64,000 bases of DNA from Eggerthellaceae bacterium (GCA_050951095.1 JBMNIQ010000002.1:239099-303098); one strand, 5' to 3'; counted from the stretch's first letter, positions 11,586 through 29,728 are shown. Notes: a model not told the origin generated them from the sequence alone. Numbers and translations are program-made.

Positions 11586-14409
11586 CTAAGCATTCCTGCT
11601 TCCATCCTTGTTCCGCCGGCGGTTCGCTAGGACCAAGAGCCCTGCAGCACCCGCGGCAGCAAACATTAGCGGCAAGAATACCATGCCAGCGGAATCACCC
11701 GTTTCGGGCATGCTGGAACTTGAAGAAGAAGAAGAAGTTGCCTCTTCGGAGCTTGTGGATCCGCCGGTATTTTGCGCGGCAGCCTTAGTGCTGTTGCCCT
11801 GCTTGGATTTCGTGGTGTCCGTCCCGGAAGGAGTGTGGTGCTTGCCCGAATTATTATTGGGCGTCGGGTTGTCCTTGTCCTGCGTGTAGGCGTTCTCGAG
11901 CGAGAGCTCGGCCGTGCCGCCCTTCGTCACCTCGGCCGTCGCGGTGCCGCCGACCTTAAGCGTCCAGCCGTCCACGTCGGCGCCGCTCTCCTCGACGGTG
12001 TAGGTGCCCATCGGCAGGCCGTCCAGCACGATGCTGCCGCCCTGGAGCTCGCCGTAGGTCACGGTCCTGCTCCAGCCGCCGGGCCCGGAGATGGCGAACT
12101 CGGCGGAGGCGGGCGTCTCGTGCCCGATGGAGGTCTTGGTCAGCCTCAGGCTGCCGGTGTTAGAGGTGTTGTTGAATGTCATGCTGTTAACAGCGGTGCC
12201 GTCCTTGCTGATGCTGGGGGGTGGCGATGATGTTCCCGGTCGGGTTCCCGTCGCTGTCTGTCTCGAGCTGCGGCGTCACCGTCACGGTGTACACGCTGGG
12301 GTCGTAGGTATAGGAGGCATCATCTCCGGAGACTTCCTTCACCTTGTACATGAAGGTCTTTCCGACATCGCTGGCATTGTAGGAAATGCGGTCGAATGAA
12401 ATCTTCCCGTCCGCATCGTTCGTCTTCGTCTGCAGGACGGTATCGTCACTCGAAAGCAGCTGGAACGAGAACTGTCCGGCAGTGAGTCCGCTACTCTTTC
12501 CGTCAATCTGCTTCGTCGCGTCCAGCGTCATGCTGCCGCCGTACTTCGTAGTTTTCGTCGTGTTTCCGCCAACGGAATTCTTCACGGTGTAGCCAACGGG
12601 AACATTGCTCATATCAACCATGAAGCGCACGTACGTGGTGGTTGAGCTGTCGATTGCCTTCGTGTTCGAAATCTTGATCTTGTGCGGGTCGGAAGCATCC
12701 TGCTCAATGGAGAAGCAGTCGCTTTCATCAGCGCTCACGAACGATACGTGAGAGTCAAGTTCGTCCGTCAGATTGATTTCTCCCGCAGCGAATCCGTTGC
12801 TGTTCCAGAATTTGATGGTGTACGTGACGAATTGGTCATCCGGATCGGTCGAGATGATGGATTTGTCCACGCTCTTCTCGCCGTTCGAGGCATTGTTATC
12901 CGTTCCTTGAAGCACGTAATTGCGGTGTTCCTGATGGGTTTCGCCGTTCTGCATGTACGTGATGGTCGCCGTGTTCGTGTACTTCGAGGTGTTCGATCCT
13001 GCGGGGATGTCGACCCAATAGTTGACCTGGATGGTGTTGCTCGTGCTTCCCGGGTACTTGAACGTGAGCGTCTGGCCGTCGATTTCAATCGAGTAGTTCG
13101 AAGGATCTATCGCTTTACCTGTGGCCTGATCCGTGACTTCGATGCTCTTGCTCATGTTGAGCGTCATTCCGTCGGGGATGCGGTCAACCACTGTTACGTT
13201 CGAGATGTTGCCCTTCTTGTCATTGATGTACAGGCGATATTTGAACGTGCCGCCATTCGTGAGGTCGGCAACGCCTACCTGGGCTGCGTTGTTGCCATAG
13301 CCCTCCGAGTAGTCGTAGCCGTCGTAGCTGACGCCGTCGTTTTCAAACCCGTCTTTCATAATCGTGTCGGTGTAGGTTCCCGTTCCGCTGGGCGATCCGC
13401 TCGGGACAATCGTGATCGTCTTGCTTGCATCGCCGGCACTGATGGTTCCCGGCGTGGTTGCATCGACATTTTTTGCCGTTACATACGCGTTGAAGCTGCC
13501 GGAAATTCCGCTCTCGATGCCGCTGCCAAACGTCAACTTATACTGGCTGTTTCCCAGGTCCTCGGAGCCGCTGAAGTGCTGGCTATTCAGTGAGAAGCGA
13601 ACTTTCGAGGCGATGCTAGACGGTATGGTGACGATCACATAGTCGCCGGTGCTGACGCTTCCCTGGTCAAGCGTGTATTTGAAGGTGACGATGGCAGTGG
13701 TGCCTGCTTCGTACGTGTCATTGTTCGTCGTGATAGTTGCATGCATATGCGCCGATGCATCAGAGCCGGCCACCTGTGTTTTCAGCGCGGCCTTCTTTGC
13801 GGATTTGAGAGTGTGCGCCGTTGTTGCGGAAGCGCTTGAACTGGAAGTGCTCGAAACAATGGAAGGGCCGGAGGCGCTTGATGTCTTGGAATCTGCCTTT
13901 TCGGAAGTGGCCGCATTGGCATCTCTCTCATTGACAATCGAGATTGTGCGGTCCTTTGCGACCTTTCCGTTTACGGTGACATTGCCGTCAGCGTCCACCT
14001 TGAAGTTAACGGCCTTGGGGGTCTGATAGCCCGAAGGGGTTTGCGATTCGCTTACCGTGTAGGAACCCGCAGCAAGGGAAACATGCGAATCGGCCGTGAG
14101 AGTTTCGCCGTTCTTGGCTTTGATTTCGAAAGTTGCTCCATTAAGCGAATCGCCGGAGTCATTGACGGCTTTGAACTGCATCTCGAATGTTTGCTCGATT
14201 GTCTTCGGGCTCTCCGTAGACGATGACGAAGCCGCAGCGTTGTTCTCTGACGTTTCGTTCGTCTGGAACGATGCCGTGCTTTGCTGCTCTGTTGAGCTTG
14301 TCGGATTTTCCGCAAAGGCCTGCACCGGCAAGGTTATCGTCGATGCGAGAGCGAATGCGAAAAATGCGGTGGCGAGCTTCTTTCCGATTCGTTTTGATTT
14401 CATTTTCAT
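11586..14409 (-). pseudogene. Sortase-anchored (xPETG) surface adhesin/pilin-like protein split by a frameshift at a C6 tract
   Basis: The N-terminal fragment (12187-14409) has signal peptide MKMKSKRIGKKLATAFFAFALASTITLPVQAFA, Cna-B/SpaA-like repeats and a pilin isopeptide-type domain. The C-terminal fragment (11586 to ~12215) has a Cna-B repeat, a Ser-rich stalk, MPETG, a hydrophobic helix and RRRNK. The frames meet at G6, 12216-12221. Confidence 0.8.
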
Positions 14410-15153
14410 TGGGCTTTCCATCCCCTCCCCATCTTTAAATGCCGATAAGGCGTCTGTTCCGCTTGCCCATGAAAGATGCCTCGGCAAAGCAAGTGAATGT
14501 GCGAGCCGATTGGGGCGGGCAAGCGGGAAACGTGGAGAGATGACACGCAGAAACGCTATCTAGATACCATTTCATAGCAGATGTCAATCTCTTCCCGGTA
14601 AAACAATTAATAGATAGCATATTTTACTAAGGTTGTCACTTAGCAAGATAATGGCAATGTGTTTGGGATTACAGCTTTGAATATTTGTGCGCTGCATCGT
14701 TATGAGCTTCTGATTAGGCGCTACTCGCCAGGCTTCGCCCGCTATCTCAACGCGTGGTAGTACGCGATGGCAATCTGAGTGCGGTTCTCCAGGCCTCGTT
14801 CGAACTTATGGCCTCGAACGTGCAGGGCTTGGCGCAGCTCACGCCGGGATATTGGCGCAATGAGGTGCTGACAATTGCGTTTACAACAAGCGATTGAAGT
14901 GTCCTGGCAGGTCGGGTAACGACGGATTTGGGTATGCTAATGCTGTTTGCTGTGGTGACGGCGCTGGTGGGAATGGCATTGTCGCGGGTGCATGCGCTGT
15001 GTTCGACAAGGGCGGTGTAGACGGCTCGTACGGCTGAGTAGAATCGAGGGTATTGTTTTGTGGGCAGGGATGCGGCCTGCTTAGAGTTTCGTCGTTTCCG
15101 TTTTGAATGGTTAGTGAGAAAAGCGTCGATAACGTTTTCAAGAAGAGGAGCAA

Positions 15154-15507
15154 ATGATGCAAGCGACCGATTGGCAAACGTTCGTGTCGATGTATCAGGC
15201 CTTGGACGCGGCATACGACGAAGGGAAACCCCAAAAGGTCTTCTCGTTCATCGCCGATGCCAACCCTAACATCTGGAAAGGCAGGGTTTCGGGCGATCCA
15301 GCCGTCTTCTCCGAGTTCTCGGAAGCCTTCGCCGAGCGCTTCCCGCAGGGGAAGGCGGATCCCGCCGCAGCGGCGGAGTTCGCGCGAGCGTTCCTGTCAA
15401 AGCAGAACGCGGAGTACGGCTGGGCGAAAGGTGACCTCGTGGCGTCCTTCGACTCCGTCGTGACCCCCGAGCTTTGGGAGAGGGCCCTTTCCGAGGCTCC
15501 TGAGTAG
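15154..15507 (+). CDS. Hypothetical 117-aa acidic protein (paralogue of 16122-16478)
   Basis: GAGGAG RBS upstream. The two copies differ at ~28 synonymous codons versus 5 replacements (hand alignment), which supports real coding. Confidence 0.65.
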   Translation: MMQATDWQTFVSMYQALDAAYDEGKPQKVFSFIADANPNIWKGRVSGDPAVFSEFSEAFAERFPQGKADPAAAAEFARAFLSKQNAEYGWAKGDLVASFDSVVTPELWERALSEAPE

Positions 15508-15532
15508 TTGAACGACAACCGCTCAACCAAAA

Positions 15533-15618
15533 GCAGGTCAGAGGAAAAATGTCCTCTGGCCTGCATCATTTCATGGTGCCCCCGGGCGGATTCGAACCGT
15601 CGACACCCGCTTTAGGAG
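15533..15618 (-). repeat. att copy 1: terminator hairpin plus 45-nt 3' segment of tRNA-Arg(CCU)
   Basis: 15574-15618 is identical to 27547-27591. The hairpin at 15533-15564 matches 27506-27537. Confidence 0.85.
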
Positions 15619-15778
15619 TGGGTCGGAGGGGTGTACTCGCATACGTATGGATTGCAAAACGCCTGTTCAGAGCGGTATGTGTCGGTTGGCGAAGGTAAAG
15701 AAAATCCTGCCTCCGCCAGGGTTTCTGGCCATTTTATGGCCATGAACGTCTCTGCCTAGACGGTATTTCGGAAGCCTC

Positions 15779-15835
15779 GGTGACGATGGTGACGATAGTG
15801 ACGATGGTTCACATATAGGAGTCTTCATCGTCACC
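15779..15835 (+). repeat. GTGACGAT palindromic module P1
   Basis: GGTGACGATGGTGACGATAGTGACGATGG-TTCACATATAGGAGTCT-TCATCGTCACC. Confidence 0.8.
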
Positions 15836-16121
15836 GGCGATCCAATTGAAGCGGCGACCGGCTCGCGTCTCCGGTCTCGCTTGCACTGGGATTCCGCTGT
15901 AAATCTTCATGCTCGGCAACCCGAACGCGCAGCGAGCGCAAAAGAACGCCTCGGCATGCGAGAATGCTTGAAGATGGATCCCAGTTATGGGCATCGGTCC
16001 TTAATGGTGTTGTGCAAAACTGCGGGAAGAACGACCCTCCGCACTCCTGGGACGACGAAACGGGGCTGAGTCGAAACATTAGCAAAACCGCCGATAACGT
16101 TTTCAAGAAGAGGAGCAAATA

Positions 16122-16478
16122 ATGCAAGCGACCGATTGGCAAACGTTCGTGTCGATGTACCAGGCCTTGGACGCAGCATACGACGAGGGGAAATCCCAGA
16201 AGGTCTTTTCGTTCATTGCCGACGCTAACCCGAACATCTGGAAGGGTAAGGTGTCGGGCGACCCGGCTGTCTTCTCTGAGTTCTCGGAGGCCTTTGCCGA
16301 GCGCTTCCCGCAGGGGAAGGCGGATCCCGCCGCCGCCGCGAAGTTCGCGCGAGCGTTCCTGTCCGAGCAGAACGCGGAGTATGGCTGGGCGGAAGGCGAC
16401 CTCGTGGCGTCCTTCGATTCCGTCGTGACCCCTGAGCTTTGGGAACGTGCCCTTTCCGAGGCTCCTGAACAACCATAA
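16122..16478 (+). CDS. Hypothetical 118-aa acidic protein (paralogue of 15154-15507)
   Basis: Same RBS context as the other copy. About 96% amino-acid identity with mostly synonymous nucleotide differences. Confidence 0.65.
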   Translation: MQATDWQTFVSMYQALDAAYDEGKSQKVFSFIADANPNIWKGKVSGDPAVFSEFSEAFAERFPQGKADPAAAAKFARAFLSEQNAEYGWAEGDLVASFDSVVTPELWERALSEAPEQP

Positions 16479-16582
16479 ACGACAATCGCTAACGATAGTA
16501 GGATAGAGAAAGATGCCTCTGTTCCGCCGCTTATGGTCTAAATTTGGCACATTATCCGAAATCGATGTCTTCGAAGCAAAAA

Positions 16583-16667
16583 GCAGGCCAGAGGTAACAC
16601 GTCCTCTAGCCTGCGTATTTACTGGTGCCCCCGATACGATTCGAACCGTCGACACCCGCTTTAGGAG
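16583..16667 (-). repeat. att copy 2: diverged terminator hairpin plus 45-nt tRNA-Arg 3' segment
   Basis: 16623-16667 matches 27547-27591 with 4 mismatches (ccgatacg vs ccgggcgg). Confidence 0.8.
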
Positions 16668-16827
16668 GGAAACGGGGAGGGCGAGGACGTTCGCAAAGAT
16701 TGAAAAACGCCTGTTCAGAACGGTGCCCGTCCATCAACGGCGGTGAAGAAAACCGGGATTGAAGCGGAAATTCGGGCCAAATTCGGGACGGGGCCGACCC
16801 TCGGAGAACGACGGGATGGCCCATGCA

Positions 16828-16866
16828 GGTGACGATGGTTCACATATAGGGGGTTTCATCGTCACC
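16828..16866 (+). repeat. GTGACGAT palindromic module P2 (single-repeat version)
   Basis: GGTGACGATGG-TTCACATATAGGGGGTT-TCATCGTCACC. Confidence 0.8.
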
Positions 16867-16960
16867 GAGCGCCTTTTCCAGAAGCCGCCGCCGGCGTTTT
16901 CGACCCGGGAAGCCCGGGGCAGGCCCTCCCGATCGCCTTGAGGCCCGTCTCAAGCCGGTG

Positions 16961-16989
16961 TTGACATATCGCATCCGTCGCTCTATTCT
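16961..16989 (+). promoter_or_regulatory. Candidate sigma-70-type promoter of arsR
   Basis: TTGACA, 17 nt, TATTCT. It lies immediately upstream of the operator at 16993. Confidence 0.5.
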
Positions 16990-16992
16990 CAT

Positions 16993-17008
16993 ATCAAAAT
17001 TTTTCGAT
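16993..17008. promoter_or_regulatory. Candidate ArsR operator 1 (near-palindrome ATCAAAATTTTTCGAT)
   Basis: An identical 16-mer recurs at 17387-17402. This copy lies 15 nt before the arsR ATG. Confidence 0.55.
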
Positions 17009-17022
17009 GTGAGGAGGCTTCC

Positions 17023-17331
17023 ATGGCGAGGGACAACGAGAGGGACGCGAGGGTCTTCAAGGCGTTCTGCAACGAGTACCGCCTCCAGGTGCTCGAGAGG
17101 CTGCGCACCGGGGAGAAGTGCGCCTGCGACCTGCTGGATCACATCGACATCAGCCAGTCGAACCTCTCGCATCACATGAAGATCCTCGTGGACTCGGGCG
17201 TGGTGTCGGCGCGCCAGGACGGCAAGTGGACCCACTACTCCATCGACCCGGAGGGGGCCAGGGCGGCGGTCGAGCTGCTCGAGGAGCTCACGACGATCCG
17301 CGGCGGCGGAGGTGGCTGCTCCTCCTGCTAG
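17023..17331 (+). CDS. arsR: ArsR/SmtB-family metalloregulator
   Basis: Winged-HTH with a CAC metal site (EKCACDLLDHIDISQSNLSHHMKILVDSGVV) and a C-terminal CSSC. Confidence 0.9.
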   Translation: MARDNERDARVFKAFCNEYRLQVLERLRTGEKCACDLLDHIDISQSNLSHHMKILVDSGVVSARQDGKWTHYSIDPEGARAAVELLEELTTIRGGGGGCSSC

Positions 17332-17386
17332 GGAGGGAGCCGTTCGACGAAGAGCCGCCGCGCGCGGCGTTTTTCTGGGCCAACAC

Positions 17387-17402
17387 ATCAAAATTTTTCG
17401 AT
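17387..17402. promoter_or_regulatory. Candidate ArsR operator 2
   Basis: Same 16-mer as 16993-17008, 21 nt before the acr3 ATG. It is preceded by a GC hairpin plus T5 (17353-17376). Confidence 0.5.
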
Positions 17403-17422
17403 ATGTGAAGGAGACAATCAAC

Positions 17423-18490
17423 ATGAGTCCTAGCGAAAACAGGAAGGGCGCGGCGTCCGGCCTCGGGCTTTGGGACCGGCTGCTCACCCTCTGGATCTTC
17501 CTGGCGATGGGAGCCGGCATCGCCATAGGGGCGGCGTTTCCGGGGTTCTCGGAGGTCCTCGGGGGGCTCTCGATGGGCACCACCAACGTGCCGATCGCCG
17601 TCGGCCTCGTTCTCATGATGTACTCGCCGCTCGCCAAGGTTCGCTACTCGGAGATGCCCAAGGTCTTCGCCGACAAGAAGCTCCTCGCGCTCTCGCTCCT
17701 GCTCAACTGGGTGGTCGGGCCGCTCCTCATGCTCGCGCTGGCCGTCCTGTTCCTCGCGGACATGCCCGAGTACATGGCGGGCGTCGTCATGATCGGGCTC
17801 GCCCGCTGCATCGCGATGGTCCTCGTGTGGAACGAGCTCGCCGGGGGCTCATCGGAGTACGCGGCCGGGCTCGTGGCCCTGAACGCCGTCTTCCAGGTCC
17901 TCCTCTACGGGCCGATGGCCTGGCTGTTCCTCTCCGTGCTCGCCCCCGCGCTCGGCGCCCGGGCGGTCGCCGTCGACGTCTCCATGTGGCAGATAGCCCA
18001 GGGCGTCCTCGTCTACCTCGGCGTCCCTATGGCCGCCGGCGCGCTCACCCGGCACCTGGGCGTGAGGGCGCTCGGCGAGGAGGGGTACGCGCGGCGCGTG
18101 ATCCCCAGGATATCGAAGATCACCCCGGCCGCGCTGATCTTCACCATCGTGGTCATGTTCTCGCTGAAGGGCGGAATGATAGCGACGCTGCCCTACGACG
18201 TCGCGAGGATCGCCGTCCCGCTGGTCGCCTACTTCTGCACCATGTTCTTCGCCAGCTCCTGGCTCGCGCACCGGGCCGGGGCCGACTACCCGCGCATGGC
18301 CTCGGTGGCCTTCACCGCTACCGGCAACAACTTCGAGCTCACCATCGCCATCGCCGCCGCCACGTTCGGGCTCGCCAGCGGGCAGGCCCTGGCGGCCGTC
18401 GTGGGGCCCCTGGTCGAGGTCCCCTCGCTCATCCTGCTGGTGAACGCCGCGCTCGCCCTGAAGCGGCGCTGGTACGAGGGGAAGGGGTAG
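17423..18490 (+). CDS. acr3: ACR3-family arsenite efflux transporter
   Basis: Start at MSPSENRK (ATG 17423, GAAGGAG upstream). It is a ten-helix protein with an ACR3-type N-terminus (LGLWDRLLTLWIFLAMGAGIAIG). Confidence 0.85.
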   Translation: MSPSENRKGAASGLGLWDRLLTLWIFLAMGAGIAIGAAFPGFSEVLGGLSMGTTNVPIAVGLVLMMYSPLAKVRYSEMPKVFADKKLLALSLLLNWVVGPLLMLALAVLFLADMPEYMAGVVMIGLARCIAMVLVWNELAGGSSEYAAGLVALNAVFQVLLYGPMAWLFLSVLAPALGARAVAVDVSMWQIAQGVLVYLGVPMAAGALTRHLGVRALGEEGYARRVIPRISKITPAALIFTIVVMFSLKGGMIATLPYDVARIAVPLVAYFCTMFFASSWLAHRAGADYPRMASVAFTATGNNFELTIAIAAATFGLASGQALAAVVGPLVEVPSLILLVNAALALKRRWYEGKG

Positions 18491-18493
18491 CGG

Positions 18494-19495
18494 ATGGAGG
18501 CGTTCGGGTCGTTCGTCATGGACCAGCTGCTCAAGATGCAGTGGCTGAGCGGGCTCGTATGGAGGCTCCTGTCGCCCCTCGGGCTGACGGAGGGCACGCA
18601 ATGGGGCGAGACGCTCCACTTCTTCGTGTACGACACGGCGAAGATCGTCATCCTGCTCGTCACGATGATATTCGCGATCGGGTACGTCCAGAGTTTCTTC
18701 CCGCCCGAGCGCAGCCGCAGGATCATGGGGCGCTTCAGGGGGTTCTGGGCCAACGTCGTGGGCGCGCTCTTGGGTACTGTCACTCCGTTCTGCAGTTGCA
18801 GCTCGATCCCGCTGTTCATCGGGTTTACGAGGGCGGGGCTGCCGCTGGGGGTCACCTTCAGCTTCCTCATCTCATCCCCTATGGTCGACCTGGGGAGCCT
18901 CGTGCTCATCATGAGCATCTTCGGGCCGGGCGTGGCAGCCGTCTACACGGTCGTGGGCCTGATGATTGCCATCTTGGGCGGCGCGTTTATCGAACGCCTT
19001 CACATGGACGACCAGATCGCCGACTTCGTGCGGGGAGACGCGCCCACCGACGCCGAGCTCCTGGCCATGAGCGTGCGCGACCGGCTCGCCTTTGCGGGGC
19101 GCGAGACATGGTCGACCTTCAAGAAGGTGTTCCCCTACGTCCTCGCCGGCGTCGCGATAGGCAGCCTCATCCACAACTGGATACCTCAGGACGCCGTCGA
19201 GCTCGTGCTGGGCGACCAGAACCCGCTCGCGGTCGTGCTGGCCACCGTCGTCGGCGCCCCCATCTACGCGGACACCTTTGGCGCCATCCCCATTGCCGAG
19301 GCGCTCTACTACAAGGGGACGCAGCTGGGCACGGTTCTGGCGTTCATGATGAGTGTCACGGTGCTGTCCATCCCCAGCTTGACCATGCTCTCGCGGGTTG
19401 TGAAGCCCAAGCTCCTGGCGACGTTCGTGGTGGTCTGCATGGTGGGGATGATTATCAGCGGATATGTCTTCAACTTCCTACAGCCCTTGTTATAG
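18494..19495 (+). CDS. UPF0718/ArsP-like permease with a TPFCSCSS motif
   Basis: Polytopic protein with the motif GTVTPFCSCSSIPLF. It is followed by the small redox-active disulfide protein that typically partners this family. Confidence 0.75.
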   Translation: MEAFGSFVMDQLLKMQWLSGLVWRLLSPLGLTEGTQWGETLHFFVYDTAKIVILLVTMIFAIGYVQSFFPPERSRRIMGRFRGFWANVVGALLGTVTPFCSCSSIPLFIGFTRAGLPLGVTFSFLISSPMVDLGSLVLIMSIFGPGVAAVYTVVGLMIAILGGAFIERLHMDDQIADFVRGDAPTDAELLAMSVRDRLAFAGRETWSTFKKVFPYVLAGVAIGSLIHNWIPQDAVELVLGDQNPLAVVLATVVGAPIYADTFGAIPIAEALYYKGTQLGTVLAFMMSVTVLSIPSLTMLSRVVKPKLLATFVVVCMVGMIISGYVFNFLQPLL

Positions 19496-19549
19496 GAGGA
19501 GCTTCTCAATAGCTGTCCAAGACACAGGCGTTTTGAAAGGAGAAAAACG

Positions 19550-19774
19550 ATGACAAAGGTTCAGGTAATGGGCTCGGGGTGCAAGAAATGCCGCCAGCTC
19601 TACGAAAACGCCGTGGAGGCGCTGGGCGAGGACTCCGTTGAGTACGTCACCGACATGGAACGCATCGCAAATGCCGGCATAATGACCACACCAGCCCTGG
19701 TAGTCGACGGAAAGCCCGTGAGCACGGGCAAGGTGCTCAAGCCCTCCGAGATTTCTGCCCTGGTCTCGGACTGA
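19550..19774 (+). CDS. Thioredoxin-fold small protein (redox-active disulfide protein 2 type)
   Basis: 74 aa with CKKC near the N-terminus (MGSGCKKC) and the TPALVVDG motif. Confidence 0.8.
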   Translation: MTKVQVMGSGCKKCRQLYENAVEALGEDSVEYVTDMERIANAGIMTTPALVVDGKPVSTGKVLKPSEISALVSD

Positions 19775-19778
19775 TTCT

Positions 19779-19822
19779 GAGGGGCAGCCGCGCGGACCGG
19801 CGTCAATCGCGGCTGTCCCCTC
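19779..19822 (+). terminator. 14-bp-stem hairpin after the ars cassette
   Basis: GAGGGGCAGCCGCG-15 nt-CGCGGCTGTCCCCTC. There is no clear U-tract. Confidence 0.45.
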
Positions 19823-19927
19823 TGCTGACACCGCTGCGCACTGGTAAAACCGCACAGCAGTCCTCCTCGCTCCACAGAGGTCGGAGCTGATACCACCGTC
19901 TTCGAAATCGGCGAAACCGTCTCCGGT

Positions 19928-20191
19928 GTGTCAATCGTCAACGATATCGCCGACGTGTACGGTAACGGCGTCCACGTGGCGAGACTCGAGTACCCTCAAG
20001 CTGTGGCTTTCGACACCGACGGCGGGGTGCTCATGCTGGACAAGGAGGTCTGGTTCTCGGAGATAACCGCCATCAAGAGGGGCGACGGCATCGACGGGCT
20101 CCTATACGACGACTCAGCCAGCTGGGAGGACCGACCGGACGAGGACCCCACGACCCACTACGAGTTTCTAACGGAGATGCAGGAACTCTAG
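19928..20191 (+). CDS. Hypothetical acidic 87-aa protein
   Basis: ORF only, with a GTG start. No motif recognised. Confidence 0.3.
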   Translation: MSIVNDIADVYGNGVHVARLEYPQAVAFDTDGGVLMLDKEVWFSEITAIKRGDGIDGLLYDDSASWEDRPDEDPTTHYEFLTEMQEL

Positions 20192-20237
20192 GTAAGTGAT
20201 GACTTTACCGACGCCTTCTTCAATGCATGGTCATCCC

Positions 20238-20292
20238 GTGACGATGGTGACGATAGTGACGATGATTGATATATAAGGGGCTTATCGTCACC
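20238..20292 (+). repeat. GTGACGAT palindromic module P3 (abuts the integrase 3' end)
   Basis: GTGACGATGGTGACGATAGTGACGATGA-TTGATATATAAGGGGCT-TATCGTCACC. Confidence 0.8.
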
Positions 20293-20355
20293 GTTGGCTC
20301 GATCGACCGGAGGCCGCCCCTCTTCTTGGTTTCCGCAGCGGTGTTTCTACGCTGC

Positions 20356-21720
20356 TTAGCCGGCTGCTCGCATGACGAATTCGTCCAGATCGCAGAGCTT
20401 GGCGCACTCCGTCACCACGAGCCCCGCTCCGTTGCATTCCTTGGCCCAGCAAGCGCCACGCGTTGCATCGTCGGGGGACTCCGTCCATTGCCTGCAGTTG
20501 CGACATTGGGTTTCATTGCCATTCGGCGCGACTAGCGTGCCTATTCTCCGCGCCGCCTCGCGCTTCCACTCGTCGTTGGTGTGGGTGTAGACGCTGTACG
20601 CCTGAAGGCTCTTGTGCCCGGAGAGGTCCCGTGTTGTCCTCTCGTCCATGCCGCAATCACGCGATAGGAAGGTCACATAGGTGTGGCGAAGGCCGTGGAA
20701 CCCAAACCCTTCCGGCACCGGGTAGCGCTTTCGCTCCTGCGCGAACCATCGGTCGAACCGCGCCTGCTGCACGTGGTTTCCCTTGCTGCTGCTGACGATG
20801 GGCATCCCGGTGCTCCATTTCAGGCCGACCTCGTCGCACCATTCTTGCTGGCTCTCCCGCCAACTCTCTAGCAGCGGAACGAGCGGAGGCGGGCAGGGAA
20901 CGATGCGCTCCTCGCCGTTCTTCGTGGACTTGGTCCTCTGGCTGTTCTTCTCCAGGCTGCGGCGGACGTCGAAAAGCCCCCTGTCGTAATCGTCCCAAGT
21001 GAGGGCGAGGACCTCGGAAAGGCGGAACCCGCACATCAACGCGAGGAGCACGCCCATCGGCAGCGCCGCGGGAGGCTCCGATGCGATCAAATCAAAGAGT
21101 TCCTGCGCCTGTCTCGGCGTGAGCGCAGACTTCTCAGGAGTGTCGTTCTTCGGTATGGTCGCCTTGTCGCATGGGTTCACGGTAATGAAGCCGTAGTCGA
21201 TCGCCTTGTTGAACATGCACGAGAGCACGCTATGGGTACGTCGCAGCGTCGTGCCGCTGTAAGGCTTTCCTCTGGGGTTAAGCTTGCCACCGGTGCGCAT
21301 CTCAGCGTACATCTTGTCGATGCTGAGGCTCGTTACCTGATCAAGGCGCTTTTTGCCGATATAGGGAATGGTTCTCGATAGGCATTCGCGGTCAGTTCTC
21401 ACCGTTCGGTTCGAAACGACCATCTGCCCCGCTCTCAGCTCGCAGTACGTCTCCGCGAACTCGCGCACAGTGGGAATGTGCTTGGCATCCTTCCGCCTCG
21501 CGTTGCGCCTGTATTCGGAGATGTTCGCTCGGTTGCCCCCGTGGTAAACGAAGTCGTTAATTTCCTTGAGGACGGAAACCGCTTCCGCCTCGCTCTCGAA
21601 ATCCTCCTGGTAAGCCTCGTACCGCTTCGTCTCATCGTTCCAACCGAGGGGGTAGCGAATCTGCCAAGTGCCGCTATTCCGTTGCCGGAAACTGCCCTTG
21701 TTATGCGGGATCTGCGCCAT
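20356..21720 (-). CDS. int: Tyrosine recombinase/integrase with a ~75-aa Cys-rich C-terminal tail
   Basis: Start at MAQIPHNKG (ATG 21720). Catalytic signature: GFRLSE (R), HGLRHTY (HxxR), GHKSLQAYSVYTH (H..Y). The tail is CRNC..C..C..C..C. Confidence 0.85.
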   Translation of the reverse strand: MAQIPHNKGSFRQRNSGTWQIRYPLGWNDETKRYEAYQEDFESEAEAVSVLKEINDFVYHGGNRANISEYRRNARRKDAKHIPTVREFAETYCELRAGQMVVSNRTVRTDRECLSRTIPYIGKKRLDQVTSLSIDKMYAEMRTGGKLNPRGKPYSGTTLRRTHSVLSCMFNKAIDYGFITVNPCDKATIPKNDTPEKSALTPRQAQELFDLIASEPPAALPMGVLLALMCGFRLSEVLALTWDDYDRGLFDVRRSLEKNSQRTKSTKNGEERIVPCPPPLVPLLESWRESQQEWCDEVGLKWSTGMPIVSSSKGNHVQQARFDRWFAQERKRYPVPEGFGFHGLRHTYVTFLSRDCGMDERTTRDLSGHKSLQAYSVYTHTNDEWKREAARRIGTLVAPNGNETQCRNCRQWTESPDDATRGACWAKECNGAGLVVTECAKLCDLDEFVMRAAG

Positions 21721-22897
21721 CGGCCCCCGCGGCCTTCCTGCGGTTGGCATCGCGCACGCGGCATGCGTCGCTGCAGTAGTCCTTGCGCGTTCCCCGCTCG
21801 TTGGAGAGCACGGCGTTGCCGCAGAGGCGGCACACGGTGATCCGCTTGCCCTCGTGGTACGAGAGCGCGTACCAGAGCGCCGAGGCGAACGAGCGGCACA
21901 GGATGCGCGGGGCGTCGATGTTCTCATGCTCGCCGGAAACGTCGTACTCCCAGCCCGCCTTCTCGCCCTCGAGGTCCAGGTTCACGTACTCGTAGCTGAA
22001 CGACTCGACCACGGAGCGGGCCATCGCCCCCTGGTCCCCGGAGTCCTCGACGCAGAGGTAGAGCGTCCGGTCCTCAGCCGGGACGCGGTTGGGGCGGAAA
22101 AGGCTCCCCCAGGAGGGCAGGTCGTCGGTGGCGAGGGGCTTGGTGGTGAAGAACACGCCCTCGTTTCGGGGGTCGGGATAGCTCGGCGTTATGTCGCCGA
22201 CTCCGGGGATGCTCGTCGCGCGCCTCGCCTTCGGGGCCATCGCCGAGAACAGCGGGTCAGAGGCCGCGTCCACCGCCGCGCTCTTGGCGGGCTTGGCGAA
22301 GAACGGGTTGAACTTGGCAGGTATCACGAGCAGGGGCGCGCCGATGCGCTTGTTGTCAACGCGCTCGAAGCCGGCCTTCGCGAAGATCTGCGGCTCGCCG
22401 CCCTCCATGAGGCCCTTGAGCCTTAGCGCCGTCGAGAGCTGGTTGCGCACGGCCATCCAGTCCTGCACGGGCTCTACCAGGACGGTGAACTCGTCGGAGA
22501 GCGAACCCATGCGCTCCGCGGCCCCCGCGCCGTCGCGGCAGTACTTCTCGACGAACTTCCCGAGCGCGAGGCCGTTGGCTCGCAGGCCCTCGGCGGAGTC
22601 CAGGAAGAGCTCGGCAGCAAGCACGTCGGCGTCGCAAGCGGTGAAGACGGCGGAGAGGAGCTTCGCGGCGTCCGCCGGCGCGAGCATGCGGGGAACCCCC
22701 GCCAGGCTCTCGACGGCGACGATCGGGGGCAGGCCGTCGACGATCTGCACGAGCGCCCCGGGGGCCTTCACGGCGAGGAGGGCGTTGAGCGCGGAGGGGT
22801 CCGGCTCGAAGCTCTCGCGCCTCGCGACGTCGGCGGGCACCGCCCTGACCAGGTAGTGCGTCCTCGTCTTTTTGTTCCTCGTGATGCAGGCGAGCAT
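21701..22897 (-). CDS. Orphan 398-aa protein with a C-terminal zinc-ribbon (CRLC...CSDAC), co-transcribed with int
   Basis: Its stop overlaps the integrase start by 20 nt. No family was recognised by eye. Confidence 0.6.
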   Translation of the reverse strand: MLACITRNKKTRTHYLVRAVPADVARRESFEPDPSALNALLAVKAPGALVQIVDGLPPIVAVESLAGVPRMLAPADAAKLLSAVFTACDADVLAAELFLDSAEGLRANGLALGKFVEKYCRDGAGAAERMGSLSDEFTVLVEPVQDWMAVRNQLSTALRLKGLMEGGEPQIFAKAGFERVDNKRIGAPLLVIPAKFNPFFAKPAKSAAVDAASDPLFSAMAPKARRATSIPGVGDITPSYPDPRNEGVFFTTKPLATDDLPSWGSLFRPNRVPAEDRTLYLCVEDSGDQGAMARSVVESFSYEYVNLDLEGEKAGWEYDVSGEHENIDAPRILCRSFASALWYALSYHEGKRITVCRLCGNAVLSNERGTRKDYCSDACRVRDANRRKAAGADGADPA

Positions 22898-23047
22898 GCG
22901 GGCCCCCTAGATGATCAAGTTACGTCTTTTAGGTCAGTATACCGTTAAATTACGCTATTGCAACATGCTTAGCCGTATGTGATAATCGCGCTAACGGCAT
23001 AATTATAAACGATGCTGTTAACCGTAAATCGAAGAAAGGAGCGAAGG

Positions 23048-23248
23048 ATGGACGAGCTGCTCAACCTCACGGAGGCGTGCGAGGTAATGCACGTGTCCTA
23101 CTCGAAGGGCCAGAAGCTGGCGAAGGCGGGCGCGCTGCCGTTCCGAAAGCTGGGAGCGACCTGGTACATATCCCGATCGGCGCTCTACCGCGAGCTCGGG
23201 ATGGAGGCACCGCGCGGTAAGGAGGAGGACGAGAAGACATGCGCATAG
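23048..23248 (+). CDS. Excisionase-family HTH DNA-binding protein
   Basis: LLNLTEACEVMHVSYSKGQKLAKAGALPFRKLGATWYISRSAL. AAAGGAG RBS. Divergent from the ORF398-int operon. Confidence 0.75.
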   Translation: MDELLNLTEACEVMHVSYSKGQKLAKAGALPFRKLGATWYISRSALYRELGMEAPRGKEEDEKTCA

Positions 23249-23352
23249 ACGAAACGCCCGCCGCGGCCGGTGAAATCTTGGCGGAAGACACGGCCGGGCA
23301 GGCGCCTGCGCCCGGAATCATACCATCCGGCACCGATGCGGGGGCGATGTAG

Positions 23353-23556
23353 ATGGCGCGCAGCTTCTTCTCCGACATGCTCGCCGATGAGCGCCTTCTG
23401 AGCAAGCACGGGCTCGACGCGTGGCCAGAGGAGCGCGAGCTCGCCCGCTACCTGTTCGACCTCGAGGGCAAGGTGGACGCGATCGCCAGGGCGAGCGGCC
23501 TCGCGGTCGAGAAGGACGTGCGGGGCAACTGGCAAGTCTCCCGCCTGGGGCGGTGA
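23353..23556 (+). CDS. Hypothetical 67-aa protein
   Basis: ORF ends 6 nt before the AAA ATPase start. No motif recognised. Confidence 0.4.
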   Translation: MARSFFSDMLADERLLSKHGLDAWPEERELARYLFDLEGKVDAIARASGLAVEKDVRGNWQVSRLGR

Positions 23557-23561
23557 GCCCC

Positions 23562-24566
23562 ATGGCAGCAGCGCTCGAGACGCACGACGCCCAGTGGCTG
23601 CTCGAGCAACCGCTTCCGAAGCACAGCTGGCTCGTGGAGGACCTGATCTCCTCCGGGCTCGTGCTCCTCGTGGGCGCGCCCAAGATCGGGAAGTCGTGGG
23701 CCTCGCTGCAGCTCGCCCTGGCCGTGAGCACCGGCCAGCCGTTCCTCGGGTTCGCCACCACGCAGGGCGACGTGCTCTACCTCTGCCTCGAGGACACCTT
23801 CCAGCGCGTCCAGCAGCGCCTGTTCCGCCTCACCGACGAGGCGAACGACCGGCTCCACTTCGCCGTGGACGCCGAGAAGCTCAGGTGCGGGCTCGTCGAG
23901 CAGCTCGAGGCCTTCGCCGGCGCGCACCCGAGCCTGCGGCTCGTCATCGTGGACACGTTCCAGGCTGTGCGCGTTCCCACGGCGGAGAGCGCCTACAAGG
24001 CGGACTACGGCGACCTGGGCGAGCTCAAGAGGTTCGGCGACGAGCGCGGGATAACCGTCGTGGCGGTGCACCACACCAGGAAGATGGGCGACCCGTCCGA
24101 CGTGTTCAACACGGTCTCGGGAACCAACGGGATCACGGGCAGCGCCGACGAGACCATGGTGCTCGCCAAGGCCAACCGCTACGACGGCACCGCCACCCTC
24201 AACGTCACCGGGCGCGACGTGGAGATGGCCGAGTACCGGCTGCGCTTCCGCGACTGCCGCTGGGAGCTCGTGGGCAAGACCAGCGAGGAGGAGCTCGAGG
24301 AGCGTGAGACGCCGGACGCCGTTCTCGCCGTGCTCGACTTCATGGCGGGCAACGTGACGGGTTGGCGCGGGACCGCCACGAGGCTCATAGCGGACGCGGG
24401 GATAGACGGGGTCAGGCCCAACGTGCTCTCGAAACTCCTCAACGAGCACAGCGACTTCATGGCCGAGCGGGGCGTGCGCTACTCGAGCACCAGAACGAAC
24501 GCAAGCCGCATGCTGCGCCTCGAGAACGTGCCTCCCGAACAATCCCGAGGGCGAGAATCGCGATGA
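23562..24566 (+). CDS. RecA-fold AAA ATPase of the RepA/AAA_25 type (island replication protein candidate)
   Basis: Start at MAAALETHD (ATG 23562). Walker A LLVGAPKIGKSW, Walker B LRLVIVDTFQ, sensor VVAVHHTRK. Confidence 0.75.
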   Translation: MAAALETHDAQWLLEQPLPKHSWLVEDLISSGLVLLVGAPKIGKSWASLQLALAVSTGQPFLGFATTQGDVLYLCLEDTFQRVQQRLFRLTDEANDRLHFAVDAEKLRCGLVEQLEAFAGAHPSLRLVIVDTFQAVRVPTAESAYKADYGDLGELKRFGDERGITVVAVHHTRKMGDPSDVFNTVSGTNGITGSADETMVLAKANRYDGTATLNVTGRDVEMAEYRLRFRDCRWELVGKTSEEELEERETPDAVLAVLDFMAGNVTGWRGTATRLIADAGIDGVRPNVLSKLLNEHSDFMAERGVRYSSTRTNASRMLRLENVPPEQSRGRESR

Positions 24567-24650
24567 TGGCAAGTAGCCTGATTCGTGCGCACAACGCTCA
24601 AATCGGGCGCTCGCCGGGATGCAGCTTGTTGCAGGTTCACGGGACAAAAC

Positions 24651-24846
24651 AGCACAATAGTGTGCTCTTTTGCCCCAGGATTTCCGTGCAGCAAGCTACC
24701 CATTGTGTGACACAAATCGTCACACAATGGATTTCGCATCGTTGATAGCAAGCTACCTATTGTGTGCGCACAAAGCGCGCACACAATCCCCGCTTGCCCG
24801 AAGGCCCGGGTCTCCCCACGCCCCGCCACTATGGAGGGTGGCGGGG
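24651..24846. promoter_or_regulatory. Cluster of hairpins/iterons sharing the CACACAAT/ATTGTGTG motif (candidate origin or operator array)
   Basis: Hairpins lie at 24651-24666, 24700-24730 (12-bp stem), 24759-24787 (11-bp stem) and 24821-24846. The two middle ones are each preceded by GCAAGCTACC (24691, 24748). Confidence 0.5.
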
Positions 24847-24991
24847 CCCGCCGGGCCTTCTCTCTTCGGCGATGCGATGTGGGGGGAGCCCCCGCGCCCC
24901 TGGGACAGAACAAAGCCCGAAAACCCACAGGCCGGAACCCCACACTCTCGGGTACCATTGGAAAACGGAAACCGATCACCCGGGAGCAACC

Positions 24992-25735
24992 ATGCCGATA
25001 GAATTCCGCGACGACTTGCCTTATGACCCGACCGACAAAAAGTCGGTAATCGCATATGCCGGCGCGCTCGTCGGCCACACGCTGCGCGAGGCGACCGACG
25101 CCGGCTCCATCGAGGTCCCGAAGGTCCGCCGCGGAGCTTTCGGCGACAGCGTCGAGTACAGCTACTTCGGAATCGAGCCGAACAGCGTGCAGGGCCCCGA
25201 TTTCCCCGAAGCGGGGCTCGAGCTCAAGACGACCCCGTTGAAGATGACCAAATCGGGCAAGCTCGCCGCCAAGGAGCGCCTCGTCATCACCATGATCGAC
25301 TACATGTCCGTCGTGGACGAGGAGTTCGAGACCAGCACGCTCGTCGACAAGGCGAGGGATATCCTGCTCGTCACCTACCTCTACGAGAGGGACAAGGACC
25401 CGCTCGACTACGTCGTGGAGCTCGCCACGGAGTGGGGCCTCCCCGAGGAGGACATGCCGGTGTTCAAGGAGGACTGGGAGACCGTCGTCGGCAAGGTGCG
25501 CGCGGGCAAGGCGCACGAGATCTCCGGCAGCGACACGCTCTACCTGGAGGCCTGCACCAAGGCGTCCGACTCGTCCATCCGGCGCAAGCAGCCCTTCTCG
25601 GACGTTCCCGCCAAGCAGCGCGGGCGCGACTTCGCAATCATCCTGTCGTGCCTGGCCGAGGAGGGGTACTCCGTGGAGTGGCGCGTGATCAACGCCGCCG
25701 AGTACGGCATGCCCCAGAAGAGGCGCGCGCAGGCG
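24992..25735 (+). pseudogene. Dead R-M system: Sau3AI/MutH-type endonuclease N-terminal part fused to an internal fragment of a C5 cytosine methyltransferase
   Basis: MPIEFRDD... contains DFPEAGLELKTTP and YLEACTKA (MutH/Sau3AI-like). After ...SDVPAKQRG the frame continues as DFAIILSCLAEEGYSVEWRVINAAEYGMPQKRR (Dcm motif VIII context), then it is cut by the IS. Confidence 0.6.
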
Positions 25736-27003
25736 CTCGCGTTTATCGCCTGGCGCGCTATCGCGAGCGCCTGCGCGCGCCTCTCCTCGCCGATCTCGGC
25801 GGGCTCCGGCCGCTCCGCGTAGAGCTCGGCGATCTTGCCGGCGGCGAAGTAGCGGGCCTCCGACCATTCCTCGTCCTGGTCGCACATCACGGCGCCCACG
25901 AGCCTCAGCAGCGAACCCGCAGACGGGAAGACCTGCACCACCCTCGACCTGCGCTTTATCTCGCGGTTGGTGCGCTCCTGCAGGTTGTTGGTACGCAGGC
26001 GCTTCCAGTGGGACCGCGGGAAGTCGAGGTACGCCAGCGCGTCCGGCTCGGCCTCCTCCATGATCGCCGCCGCCCTCGGGCAGCAGCCCTCGAGCATGTC
26101 GATGGCGACGTGGTACATGGCTCGGACGACGTCGGCGTCCTTTGCCCTGAACACGGGCGCGATTATCCTGGCGACGCGCCTGGAGAGCGGGCCGCGCCCG
26201 GCCTCGCGGATGCAGTTGCGCATCAGGTGCACGGCGCACCGCTGCCAGGCGGCGCCCTGGAACGCCTCTGCGATCGCGCGCTTTAGCCCCTCGTGGGCGT
26301 CGGACACGACGAGCTCCACGCCGCAGATGCCGCGCTCCCGCAGGCTTCTCAGGAAGGCCGTCCACGAGTCGTAGGACTCGGTGTCCACCACGTCGAAGCC
26401 CACGACGTGGCGCCAGCCGCCGTCGTCGCAGCCGATCGCGGTCACTACGGCGGTGGAGGCGACGTGCCCCTCCGACCTGCACTTGACGTAGGTGGCGTCG
26501 AGCCACAGGTAGGGCATCCTCGTGCCGCGCAGGTCGCGGCCGAGCAGCTCGTCGGCCTCGGCGTCCAGGCTCTGCGCGATGGCGCTCACCTGGTCCTTCG
26601 ACAGGCGCTCGATCCCCATCTTCGCCGCGACCTTGGCGACCTTGCGGGTGCTGGTGCCGGTGGCGTACATCTCCGCGACCGTTGCGGCCACCGCGCGGTC
26701 GACGCGCTGGTATCGCTCGATGACGTCCTCGGGGAAGAAGCTGCCGCTCCTGAGCTTGGGGATGCGCAGCGTGAGCGTGCCGACGCAGGTCGCGAGCTTG
26801 CGCTCCCTGTAGCCGTTGCGGGCGTTGCCGGTGGCGCCGCACAGCTGGTCGGCCTCGGCGCTCATGATCTCGTTCACCAGCGTCTCGGCCATGCACCTGA
26901 TGAGCTCCTGCATGTTGACGGTGCCGTCCGCGAACCTGGGCATCTGCTGGGGCGCCGGCGCGGTGACGGCCGCGTTCTCTGGTATGATTTCCATCGTGGT
27001 CAT
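25540..27003 (-). CDS. tnp: IS256-family (mutator-type) transposase; the last ~75 codons probably read through the IS end
   Basis: MTTMEIIPE... matches the typical IS256 layout (ADQLCGA, YLWLDATYVK, VVSDAHEGLK, WQRCAVHLMRN). Family proteins are ~410 aa. Confidence 0.85.
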   Translation of the reverse strand: MTTMEIIPENAAVTAPAPQQMPRFADGTVNMQELIRCMAETLVNEIMSAEADQLCGATGNARNGYRERKLATCVGTLTLRIPKLRSGSFFPEDVIERYQRVDRAVAATVAEMYATGTSTRKVAKVAAKMGIERLSKDQVSAIAQSLDAEADELLGRDLRGTRMPYLWLDATYVKCRSEGHVASTAVVTAIGCDDGGWRHVVGFDVVDTESYDSWTAFLRSLRERGICGVELVVSDAHEGLKRAIAEAFQGAAWQRCAVHLMRNCIREAGRGPLSRRVARIIAPVFRAKDADVVRAMYHVAIDMLEGCCPRAAAIMEEAEPDALAYLDFPRSHWKRLRTNNLQERTNREIKRRSRVVQVFPSAGSLLRLVGAVMCDQDEEWSEARYFAAGKIAELYAERPEPAEIGEERRAQALAIARQAINASACARLFWGMPYSAALITRHSTEYPSSARHDRMIAKSRPRCLAGTSEKGCLRRMDESDALVQASR

Positions 27004-27082
27004 TGCCTTTCACTCGAACCTGACTTGTCGTGATTTCAGATTCTAGGCGATGGCCACACCCTTTCACAGCGGCGCTATCGCG
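25750..27082 (-). mobile_element. IS256-family insertion sequence (boundaries approximate)
   Basis: Contains the transposase ORF. An 11-bp direct repeat GCGCTATCGCG at 25755-25765 and 27072-27082 may be the target duplication. I could not confirm terminal inverted repeats. Confidence 0.6.
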
Positions 27083-27286
27083 CCTCGGCCCTTACACCAA
27101 CTTTTCCGACGCGATCGCGCCTTCTGCATGGGCAACGCGCTCGTCGTGGGCATTCCTCATCGGATTGGAACAATCATAGCGGGAGAGCAAGAAGGGTAAT
27201 TTCTGGACTCGATGCCTGTTCGCATTCAGCGACTTCGGTGCATTGAAAGAACGCGACTGAAGGTATTGAGATCCAACCCATGGCCC

Positions 27287-27343
27287 GGTGACGATAAGAC
27301 CCTCTATATCGAAAAGACCGTCACCATCGTCACCATCGTCACC
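27287..27343 (-). repeat. GTGACGAT palindromic module P4 (inverted relative to P1-P3)
   Basis: The reverse complement reads GGTGACGATGGTGACGATGGTGACGG-TCTTTTCGATATAGAGGGTCT-TATCGTCACC. Confidence 0.8.
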
Positions 27344-27505
27344 GTTTCGCTGTAAGTAGGCTGAACCGGAGCGGTCTCCTGTTTCGCTAAATGGCGTAAA
27401 CGTCGGTTGCCGACGTGTGCTATCTGCGTCCATTTGTCGAGCTCATGAAAGAAATTCTGGCCAAATTCTGGCCATCGGGCCGAAAAGTATCCCCTAAAAC
27501 GCAAA

Positions 27506-27537
27506 GCAGGTCAGAGGAAAAATGTCCTCTGACCTGC
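27506..27537 (-). terminator. Terminator hairpin of tRNA-Arg
   Basis: GCAGGTCAGAGGA-loop-TCCTCTGACCTGC, followed on the minus strand by TTTGCGTTTT. Confidence 0.7.
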
Positions 27538-27546
27538 GGTTTCATC

Positions 27547-27622
27547 TGGTGCCCCCGGGCGGATTCGAACCGTCGACACCCGCTTTAGGAGAGCGGTGCT
27601 CTATCCCCTGAGCTACGGAGGC
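27547..27622 (-). tRNA. tRNA-Arg (anticodon CCU), CCA encoded
   Basis: The hand-folded cloverleaf has acceptor GCCTCCG/CGGGGGC, anticodon stem CCGCT/AGCGG, loop CUCCUAA and T-loop GGTTCGAATCC. Confidence 0.9.
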
Positions 27623-27630
27623 GAAGTTAA

Positions 27631-27662
27631 TACCGAGAGGCTATTGTAGCAGCCTCTCGGTA
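27631..27662 (-). terminator. Hairpin after pknB
   Basis: TACCGAGAGGCT-8 nt-AGCCTCTCGGTA, 4 nt downstream of the pknB stop. Confidence 0.5.
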
Positions 27663-27665
27663 CGA

Positions 27666-29618: not shown

Positions 29619-29728
29619 GTTTAAACTCCTTTTGGATACATGCTAAAGCGAACCTGAATCGACTGCTTTAGCTTACTCCATTTCGCACTTCACCAGACGG
29701 TTGAATAGGTACTCAACCGAATTGTTTC

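Follow-up and report, generated by a model that had tools for sequence, protein, structure and literature searches.

Site-specific integrative elements, probably stacked in tandem, at the 3' half of the tRNA-Arg(CCU) gene of an Eggerthellaceae bacterium

We analysed a 64-kb stretch of the genome of an Eggerthellaceae bacterium (GCA_050951095.1, JBMNIQ010000002.1:239099-303098; hereafter the window, 64,000 nt), in which all positions are counted from the first nucleotide. The window contains a single tRNA-Arg(CCT) gene at 27547-27622 on the minus strand, as detected by ARAGORN and in agreement with Rfam. Away from this tRNA lie, in order, a unit with a tyrosine integrase (E1, 19876-27546), an arsenic-resistance element without an integrase (E2, 16668-19774), a 1-kb unit without a recombinase (B, 15619-16622), and an open reading frame (ORF) of unassigned family, ORF117. 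We consider it about 85% probable that 15119-27622 consists of site-specific integrative elements stacked in tandem at the 3' half of tRNA-Arg(CCU).

The 45 nt at the 3' end of the tRNA (27547-27591), which we call the core, recur exactly at 15574-15618 (45/45), and a second copy at 16623-16667 agrees at 41/45 positions, its four mismatches being adjacent to each other. No further copies were found in the window at up to 10 mismatches, and the expectation of an exact recurrence by chance is about 1e-22. Beside each core stands a 32-nt hairpin; the three hairpins are mutually 83-93% alike, and each is followed by a T-rich tail when read on the tRNA strand. Because of this tail and of a fold far more stable than in shuffled controls (-21 to -28 kcal/mol; z = -3 to -6), we read one of them as the intrinsic terminator of the tRNA and the other two as its copies. 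The features in question are as follows.

27547-27622, minus strand: intact tRNA-Arg(CCU), whose 3' 45 nt (27547-27591) form core A (the attachment site attL)
27506-27537, minus strand: the tRNA's intrinsic terminator, situated in the P' arm of the integrase element
16623-16667, minus strand: core B, 41/45, with four mismatches in the 3' strand of the T stem, outside the mapped exchange region
16583-16614, minus strand: terminator copy B, a hairpin copy
15574-15618, minus strand: core C, 45/45, the outermost attachment (att) copy of the window
15533-15564, minus strand: terminator copy C, a hairpin copy

An earlier note, made from the sequence of this stretch, had described both the three tRNA 3' copies and the hairpin beside each of them, and our analysis confirms these claims. 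The same note took the duplicated terminator to be unusual, which it is not: the terminator belongs to the P' arm of each element, so that a complete, terminated tRNA gene would be rebuilt after insertion.

At the same tRNA, loci related to the window have one, two or four cores, and the order of the shared modules differs among them. In L015, an Eggerthellaceae metagenome-assembled genome (MAG) with an integrase 73% identical, one 8.1-kb element with both the integrase gene (int) and the arsenic-resistance (ars) genes lies, bounded by two cores, at the same tRNA, beside PknB. L033 (integrase 76% identical) has four cores and reads tRNA, int element, core, ars element, core, DUF4417 element, core. 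L062 has two full cores, and its int element is welded to the DUF4417 element (E3), followed by an ATPase element and a RelB/Sel1 flank; the deletion behind this weld is not that of the window, though it struck the same end of the int element. L008 is 99% identical to 15525-18981 of the window, while its outer flank differs and is the RelB/Sel1 region found in L062. The neighbours of each unit vary accordingly: E2 adjoins B in the window and in L008 and E3 in L033, and E3 adjoins E1 in L062. The contig L058 was tried as a link from L008 to the integrase element and failed, being 100% identical to the window strain.

We aligned the flanks of 13 cores from six loci. Facing the 5' half of the tRNA, identity stops where the anticodon loop begins, at tRNA position 32, in all 13 junctions, and the architecture of the arms is the same at 13/13 cores. 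On the P-arm side, each non-tRNA junction carries a conserved box, AAACGCCTGTTCAGA (found at 15657 and 16705), two short AAATTYGG-type repeats and a cluster of the form [GGTGACGAT]n - ATATAG - ATCGTCACC; this TGACGAT-type repeat cluster, at 15778-15837 and 16811-16870, is separated from the core by ~160 nt. On the P'-arm side come the tRNA 3' half, the terminator and short repeats of the AAATTYGG class (27451-27480, 16537-16565). The arm features of the window are listed here.

27451-27480, plus strand: short direct repeats of the P' arm, AAATTCTGGCC x2, of a motif class that adjoins every core in all loci
27285-27344, minus strand: armR, inverted [GGTGACGAT]x3 - ATATAG - ATCGTCACC, ~200 nt from the core, a putative arm-type protein-binding site
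20238-20295, plus strand: armM, an extra copy of the arm repeat directly downstream of int
16668-16870, plus strand: P arm of the ars element, with box (16705-16719), short repeats (16767-16790) and arm repeat (16811-16870), identical to L033 over 290/290
16537-16565: P'-type short repeat of B, adjoining terminator copy B, between ORF118 and the terminator
15619-15837, plus strand: P arm of remnant B, with box (15657-15671), short repeats (15722-15744) and arm repeat (15778-15837), identical to L008 over 290/290

This layout reads as an attP of ~450 bp with arm-type sites, in which the arm repeats would be putative binding sites for the integrase (Int) or an excisionase-like protein. The position of strand exchange can be narrowed by comparing cores between loci. 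The arm sides of core C and of its counterpart in L008 are identical over 290/290, their terminator sides have diverged, and because the last mismatch lies at core position 30 of 45, strand exchange is placed within tRNA positions 32-46, i.e., the anticodon loop and the 3' anticodon stem. Likewise, core B and the third core of L033 agree at 290/290 on the arm side and are unrelated on the opposite side. Identity between loci flips in this manner from 100% to unrelated inside the 45-nt core. Variable modules combined with such identity switches at the junctions leave practically no room for a plain segmental duplication and support repeated insertion and reshuffling. The earlier proposal of repeated tyrosine-integrase insertion into tRNA-Arg(CCU) is thereby supported on three sides, by an intact integrase, by reshuffled related loci and by the identity switch inside the core. 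At the level of sequence, these comparisons establish the anatomy of the array, the modular reshuffling between loci and the exchange position; the array may still be mobile.

In the window, in L015 and in L033, the active tRNA-Arg(CCU) carries a mismatched A50.C64 pair in its T stem, which derives from the 3' half supplied by the element. Displaced copies in L015, L008, L062 and core 2 of L033 have G50 and a perfect T stem, and an insertion thus seems to exchange the tRNA for a slightly imperfect one. The positions compared include 27547-27622 of the window, 3514-3558 and 11685-11760 of L015, and 2688-2763 and 8776-8820 of L033.

The earlier note had treated 16668-27546 as one element of ~10.9 kb. 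Its integrase-mediated insertion at the tRNA stands, and its unity does not, for the segment corresponds to two elements that are split by a fourth core in L033. There, the int element ends in an intact 193-aa gene, an arm, a box, a core and a terminator, after which the ars element begins, while the window has none of these parts between the remnant of the 193-aa gene (aa 88-191) and the end of the thioredoxin gene.

17023-19774, plus strand: ars cargo, comprising ArsR (17023-17331), ACR3 (17405-18490), ArsP (18494-19495) and a thioredoxin-like protein (19550-19774)
19775-19875, no strand: deletion junction joining E1 to E2, where L033 has the start of the 193-aa gene, arm, P-arm box, core and terminator
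19877-20191, plus strand: remnant of the 193-aa gene, aa 88-191, 5'-truncated; the gene is intact in L033

The 10.9-kb "element" is thus best read as two elements fused by deletion of their shared junction. E2 of the window is 95% identical to L033 and 80.5% to L015, while the corresponding values for E1 are 85% and 87%, and this discordance argues for separate histories of the two modules. The distal end of E1 has been lost twice independently, at 19775-19875 in the window and at 3886-3948 in L062; both deletions start shortly past the arm copy beside int, and that of L062 ends in the T-loop of the next core. Insertion "at least twice", as had been proposed, holds as repeated insertion, but two units are too few: there are at least three, and probably four.

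The remaining units are B and the segment with ORF117.

16122-16478, plus strand: ORF118, 96% identical to ORF117 at the amino acid level
15955-16119, plus strand: 3' stub of a 123-aa gene (aa 69-123, the last 55 residues), a gene that precedes ORF117 homologues in intact operons
15119-15507, plus strand: ORF117 (15157-15507) and the 38 nt before it, which are homologous to B; probably what is left of the P' end of a fourth element

The duplication of ORF117 and ORF118 is real, as 15119-15418 and 16084-16383 are 90% identical, and this bears out the earlier claim that the duplicated segment of the remnant reaches into a whole 118-aa gene. Between the two genes, the synonymous divergence (dS) is 0.49 and the ratio of nonsynonymous to synonymous divergence (dN/dS) is 0.05, which indicates old, selected copies and no recent duplication. 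Elsewhere, the operon reads XRE, ImmA-like, DUF4417, 123-aa, ORF117. B is a deletion remnant of a larger element: the ~1-kb remnant of the earlier note stands as a remnant, though of something larger, from which the stub of the 123-aa gene and ORF118 were kept. Since the homology of ORF117 with B starts only at 15119, ORF117 marks a similar stub, probably the end of a fourth element, and is itself probably element-derived. No more cores, P-arm boxes or arm clusters that could mark the far end of the putative fourth element were found left of 15574. The empty site predicted earlier, which was expected to read ORF117, hairpin, tRNA, is accordingly doubtful, since ORF117 is probably an element remnant whose homologues sit in an operon of mobile-element type.

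ORF117 and ORF118 have stayed intact under strong purifying selection, and the overlapping upstream 123-aa gene is truncated or lost (also at 1263-1984 of L051); judged by this pattern, they resemble an orphan immunity or antitoxin gene. ORF117 had no family or defence-system match, and PADLOC returned nothing for the ORF117, 123-aa and DUF4417 proteins.

The gene content of E1 was assigned from Pfam, PHROGs and NCBIfam profile matches, and consists of a tyrosine integrase, an excisionase-like helix-turn-helix (HTH) protein, a RepA-like ATPase, a 398-aa protein, decayed restriction-modification (R-M) cargo and an IS256 insertion sequence (IS).

20356-21720, minus strand: tyrosine integrase of 454 aa, with R, K, H-x-x-R, H and Y all present
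21701-22897, minus strand: 398-aa protein with a C-terminal zinc ribbon, always adjoining int
23048-23248, plus strand: HTH_17 excisionase-like protein, by profile match
23562-24566, plus strand: AAA_25 ATPase, RepA-like or primase-helicase-like, by profile match
24560-24900, no strand: non-coding DNA rich in repeats and palindromes that follows the AAA_25 gene downstream and is conserved in L015, L033 and L061
24764-25822, plus strand: decayed R-M cargo, with the first ~200 aa of a Sau3AI-type endonuclease and a short C5-methyltransferase fragment
25540-27003, minus strand: transposase ORF of the IS256 family (Mutator-type), inserted in the decayed cargo

The integrase matches Pfam Phage_integrase at 3.6e-16, and alignment with XerD recovers the full R-K-H-R-H-Y catalytic set (R in CGFRLSE, then HGLRH, GHKS and YTH). 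Beyond the catalytic Tyr it has a Cys-rich tail of ~70 residues (20356-20580). The best relative of the integrase belongs to an Eggerthellaceae MAG, by which the host is placed in Coriobacteriia. Its relatives in Collinsella (47% identity) lie away from any tRNA or core and were uninformative. The 398-aa protein gave no PDB sequence match, no family match and only 6 homologue clusters, and its AlphaFold model, with a predicted local distance difference test score (pLDDT) of 72.5, had no significant Foldseek match; neither it nor the 193-aa protein was matched by PADLOC. Its C-terminal CxxC...YCSxxC zinc ribbon (21701-21830) recurs weakly in a 379-aa protein from the L033 DUF4417 element. The stretch at 24560-24900, with three ~27-nt repeat copies (GTAGCAAGCTACCTATTGTGTGCGCACAA type), perfect palindromes (e.g., 24701-24729) and a GC-rich hairpin at 24800-24860, is a candidate origin of the element. 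In the R-M region (24764-27067), the Sau3AI-type gene breaks off after ~200 codons, which are fused in frame to a C5-methyltransferase fragment of 38 residues, and the cargo is then broken by the IS256-family element; this heavily decayed cargo has no counterpart in L033 or L015. A simple search did not locate the terminal inverted repeats of IS256. The proportion of G+C is 0.60-0.71 within 16800-27000, against 0.51-0.56 at 14000-16999 and 0.54-0.62 at 27200-29800 in the flanks.

In L015 (6815-11365) and L061 (2083-6631), the module of AAA_25, HTH, 398-aa protein and int, together with the downstream arm repeat, runs in the opposite direction, with respect to the tRNA and the ars genes, to that of 20356-24901 in the window; the window, L033 and L062 share one orientation. 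An invertible int module flanked by arms was considered and rejected, as L015 has no arm remnant at the other breakpoint.

Taken as a mechanism, an incoming circle would pair its core with the intact tRNA, and Int would exchange strands in the anticodon loop and stem. The element's own 3' half and terminator would complete the tRNA, and the old 3' half would be displaced to the far end. Repeated insertion would stack the units with the newest nearest the tRNA, and later deletions would remove integrase genes or whole junctions. Integrase-less units would presumably be moved in cis or in trans by the integrase of E1. Since core A does not differ from core C, and since none of the four changes in core B falls within the mapped exchange region, excision could in principle still occur for the 11.9-kb composite, for the E1-E2 unit of 10.9 kb or for B alone.

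Several observations weigh against a tandem array built by simple insertion. Simple stacking explains neither the inverted int module of L015 and L061 nor the position of armM beside int. No empty site or circular attP junction was present among the contigs examined, and a pattern scan of metagenome contigs of the Joint Genome Institute (JGI), from the end of ORF117 to the 3' end of the tRNA, gave 0 matches, the collection evidently lacking the source samples. Exact-protein look-ups returned same-strain contigs only, all of which show the fused arrangement of the window. As for genes of transfer, no Pfam domain of a conjugation module (type IV secretion system, T4SS, or FtsK/SpoIIIE-like TraB) was found in any ORF of 15100-27600, profile searches of the window proteins matched no relaxase family, and Pfam and PHROGs yielded no phage morphogenesis or packaging genes.

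The alternatives differ in how much of this they can accommodate. A segmental or tandem duplication independent of the integrase, which the earlier note had set against its own account, would suit the ~1-kb units 15119-15837 and 16084-16870, which are adjacent and co-linear; it is contradicted by the repeat boundary exactly at tRNA position 32 in 13 junctions of 6 loci and by the identity switches in the cores, modules on either side vary independently across loci, and units that are ~10-25% diverged nevertheless have counterparts in other genomes that are 99-100% identical, so that we regard it as highly improbable. It is also unlikely that exactly two insertions took place, with the 10.9-kb segment acquired whole and L033 arising by later insertion or rearrangement. 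Such a history agrees with L015 and L061, where int and ars lie in one element with only two cores, and with the fused form of all same-strain contigs, but it leaves aside that the window holds only aa 88-191 of the 193-aa gene and none of the arm, box, core and terminator of L033, that the identities of E1 and E2 to L033 and L015 are discordant, and that E1 of L062 is welded to another unit by another deletion.

More serious, though still doubtful, is the possibility that ORF117, terminator and tRNA are native and that ORF118 is a piece of host flank that an aberrant excision picked up in a related host, in the manner of a specialised transducing phage, and then re-inserted by homologous or site-specific recombination. 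ORF117 and ORF118 are alike in position and orientation beside a terminator and core, L031, from a different organism, has an ORF117-like pseudogene beside an identical core, and a dS of 0.49 shows the two genes to stem from diverged lineages. However, distant homologues end the XRE / ImmA-like / DUF4417 / 123-aa operon typical of mobile elements and none of them lies beside a core; stubs of the 123-aa gene were kept in B and in L031, P'-type short repeats lie between ORF118 and the terminator in B, and the flanks past ORF117 are unrelated between the window and L031. Finally, E1 might be a satellite like the phage-inducible chromosomal islands (PICI) or a prophage remnant instead of a mobilisable island, given its int / excisionase-like / primase-helicase-like module, its ori-like repeats and its small size; we think this improbable, since no capsid, terminase or packaging-related matches appeared in Pfam or PHROGs and the integrase has no relative in 2.9 million viral contigs.

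A tandem array at tRNA-Arg(CCU) places the locus among known systems. Here, an integrase with a complete catalytic set is found with an intact tRNA and a direct repeat of its 3' end, and occupancy differs between loci with breakpoints at the repeat, as is the case for tRNA-targeting integrative elements. Integrase-less, att-flanked units (E2 and B in the window, E2 and E3 between cores in L033) lie beside an integrase-bearing unit, and the same units have different neighbours; the locus matches the known pattern of tandem accretion with cis-mobilizable elements (CIMEs), a mechanism that is already known. An integrative and conjugative element (ICE), including the actinomycete type (AICE), was rejected because no transfer genes were found. 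An integron was rejected as well, as the integron-integrase model scored 33.5 bits against a cutoff of 265 bits and the units are bounded by tRNA cores, with no attC. A prophage or PICI-type satellite could likewise not be demonstrated, as the searches yielded no phage structural genes and no viral-contig relatives.

Lambda-type arm-site integrases and pSAM2-type AICEs have a large integrase, extended at its N terminus and paired with an excisionase-like protein, an attP of ~450 bp with repeats on both arms, and the tRNA 3' half on the element, all as here. Unlike pSAM2-type AICEs, the present locus yielded neither an FtsK/SpoIIIE-like transfer protein nor a replication gene of the RepSA type, and arm-site binding is predicted from the repeats.

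Tandem accretion of ICEs as well as integrative mobilizable elements (IMEs) with CIMEs has been described, e.g., for ICESt1/ICESt3-CIME of Streptococcus thermophilus (PMC5704250). Both systems show site-specific integration at the 3' end of a conserved gene, an integrase unit stacked with decayed or integrase-less att-bearing units, internal chimeric att sites and composite units in varied combinations. In contrast, integration in these Coriobacteriia targets tRNA-Arg(CCU) in the region of its anticodon loop, neither conjugation nor relaxase genes were found, units are welded together where some of the internal junctions are deleted, and mobilisation is predicted from the sequence. In the ssrA-specific tandem genomic islands of Dehalococcoides, the 3' end of a gene for a small RNA is directly repeated many times, and the insertion point of these islands was mapped by repeat alignment (PMC3146451). 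They share with our locus the 3'-end repeats downstream of an intact gene and adaptive cargo with or without an integration module, but they use a serine recombinase and a 20-bp tmRNA repeat, whereas the present elements have a tyrosine integrase, 45 nt plus a terminator, and long arm regions.

The right flank of the array consists of PknB and a RodA-PBP fusion. PknB is a PASTA kinase (27666-29618) with a poly-serine tail of ~30 residues, and its four PASTA units account for the direct repeats of ~201-204 nt at 27841-28519; the neighbouring RodA-PBP fusion (29729-32497) has 922 aa. On the left, ~630 nt of non-coding DNA (14488-15118) separate a SpaA-type pilin gene from ORF117. This segment has the lowest GC of the region, about 0.51, and resembles none of the related loci; it, or DNA further left, may contain the island's far boundary.

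Our results leave the current understanding of genomic-island formation unchanged. They provide a sequence-level map of the site, with the exchange region and two classes of arm repeat, that could guide excision assays or the design of genetic tools in a group that is poor in tools. We tentatively suggest that the tRNA-Arg(CCU) locus of Eggerthellaceae is a modular capture platform, at which one integrase lineage actively shuffles many integrase-less units in trans. If this is true, the ars, DUF4417 / 123-aa / ORF117 and ATPase units would not be mere decayed relics, each of them would carry full attachment arms with a replacement tRNA half and terminator, and orphan ORF117-type genes would be retained as protection against a lost partner toxin. 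The locus documents the movement of arsenic-resistance genes and other cargo among gut-type Coriobacteriia, carried by small elements that share one tRNA insertion site.

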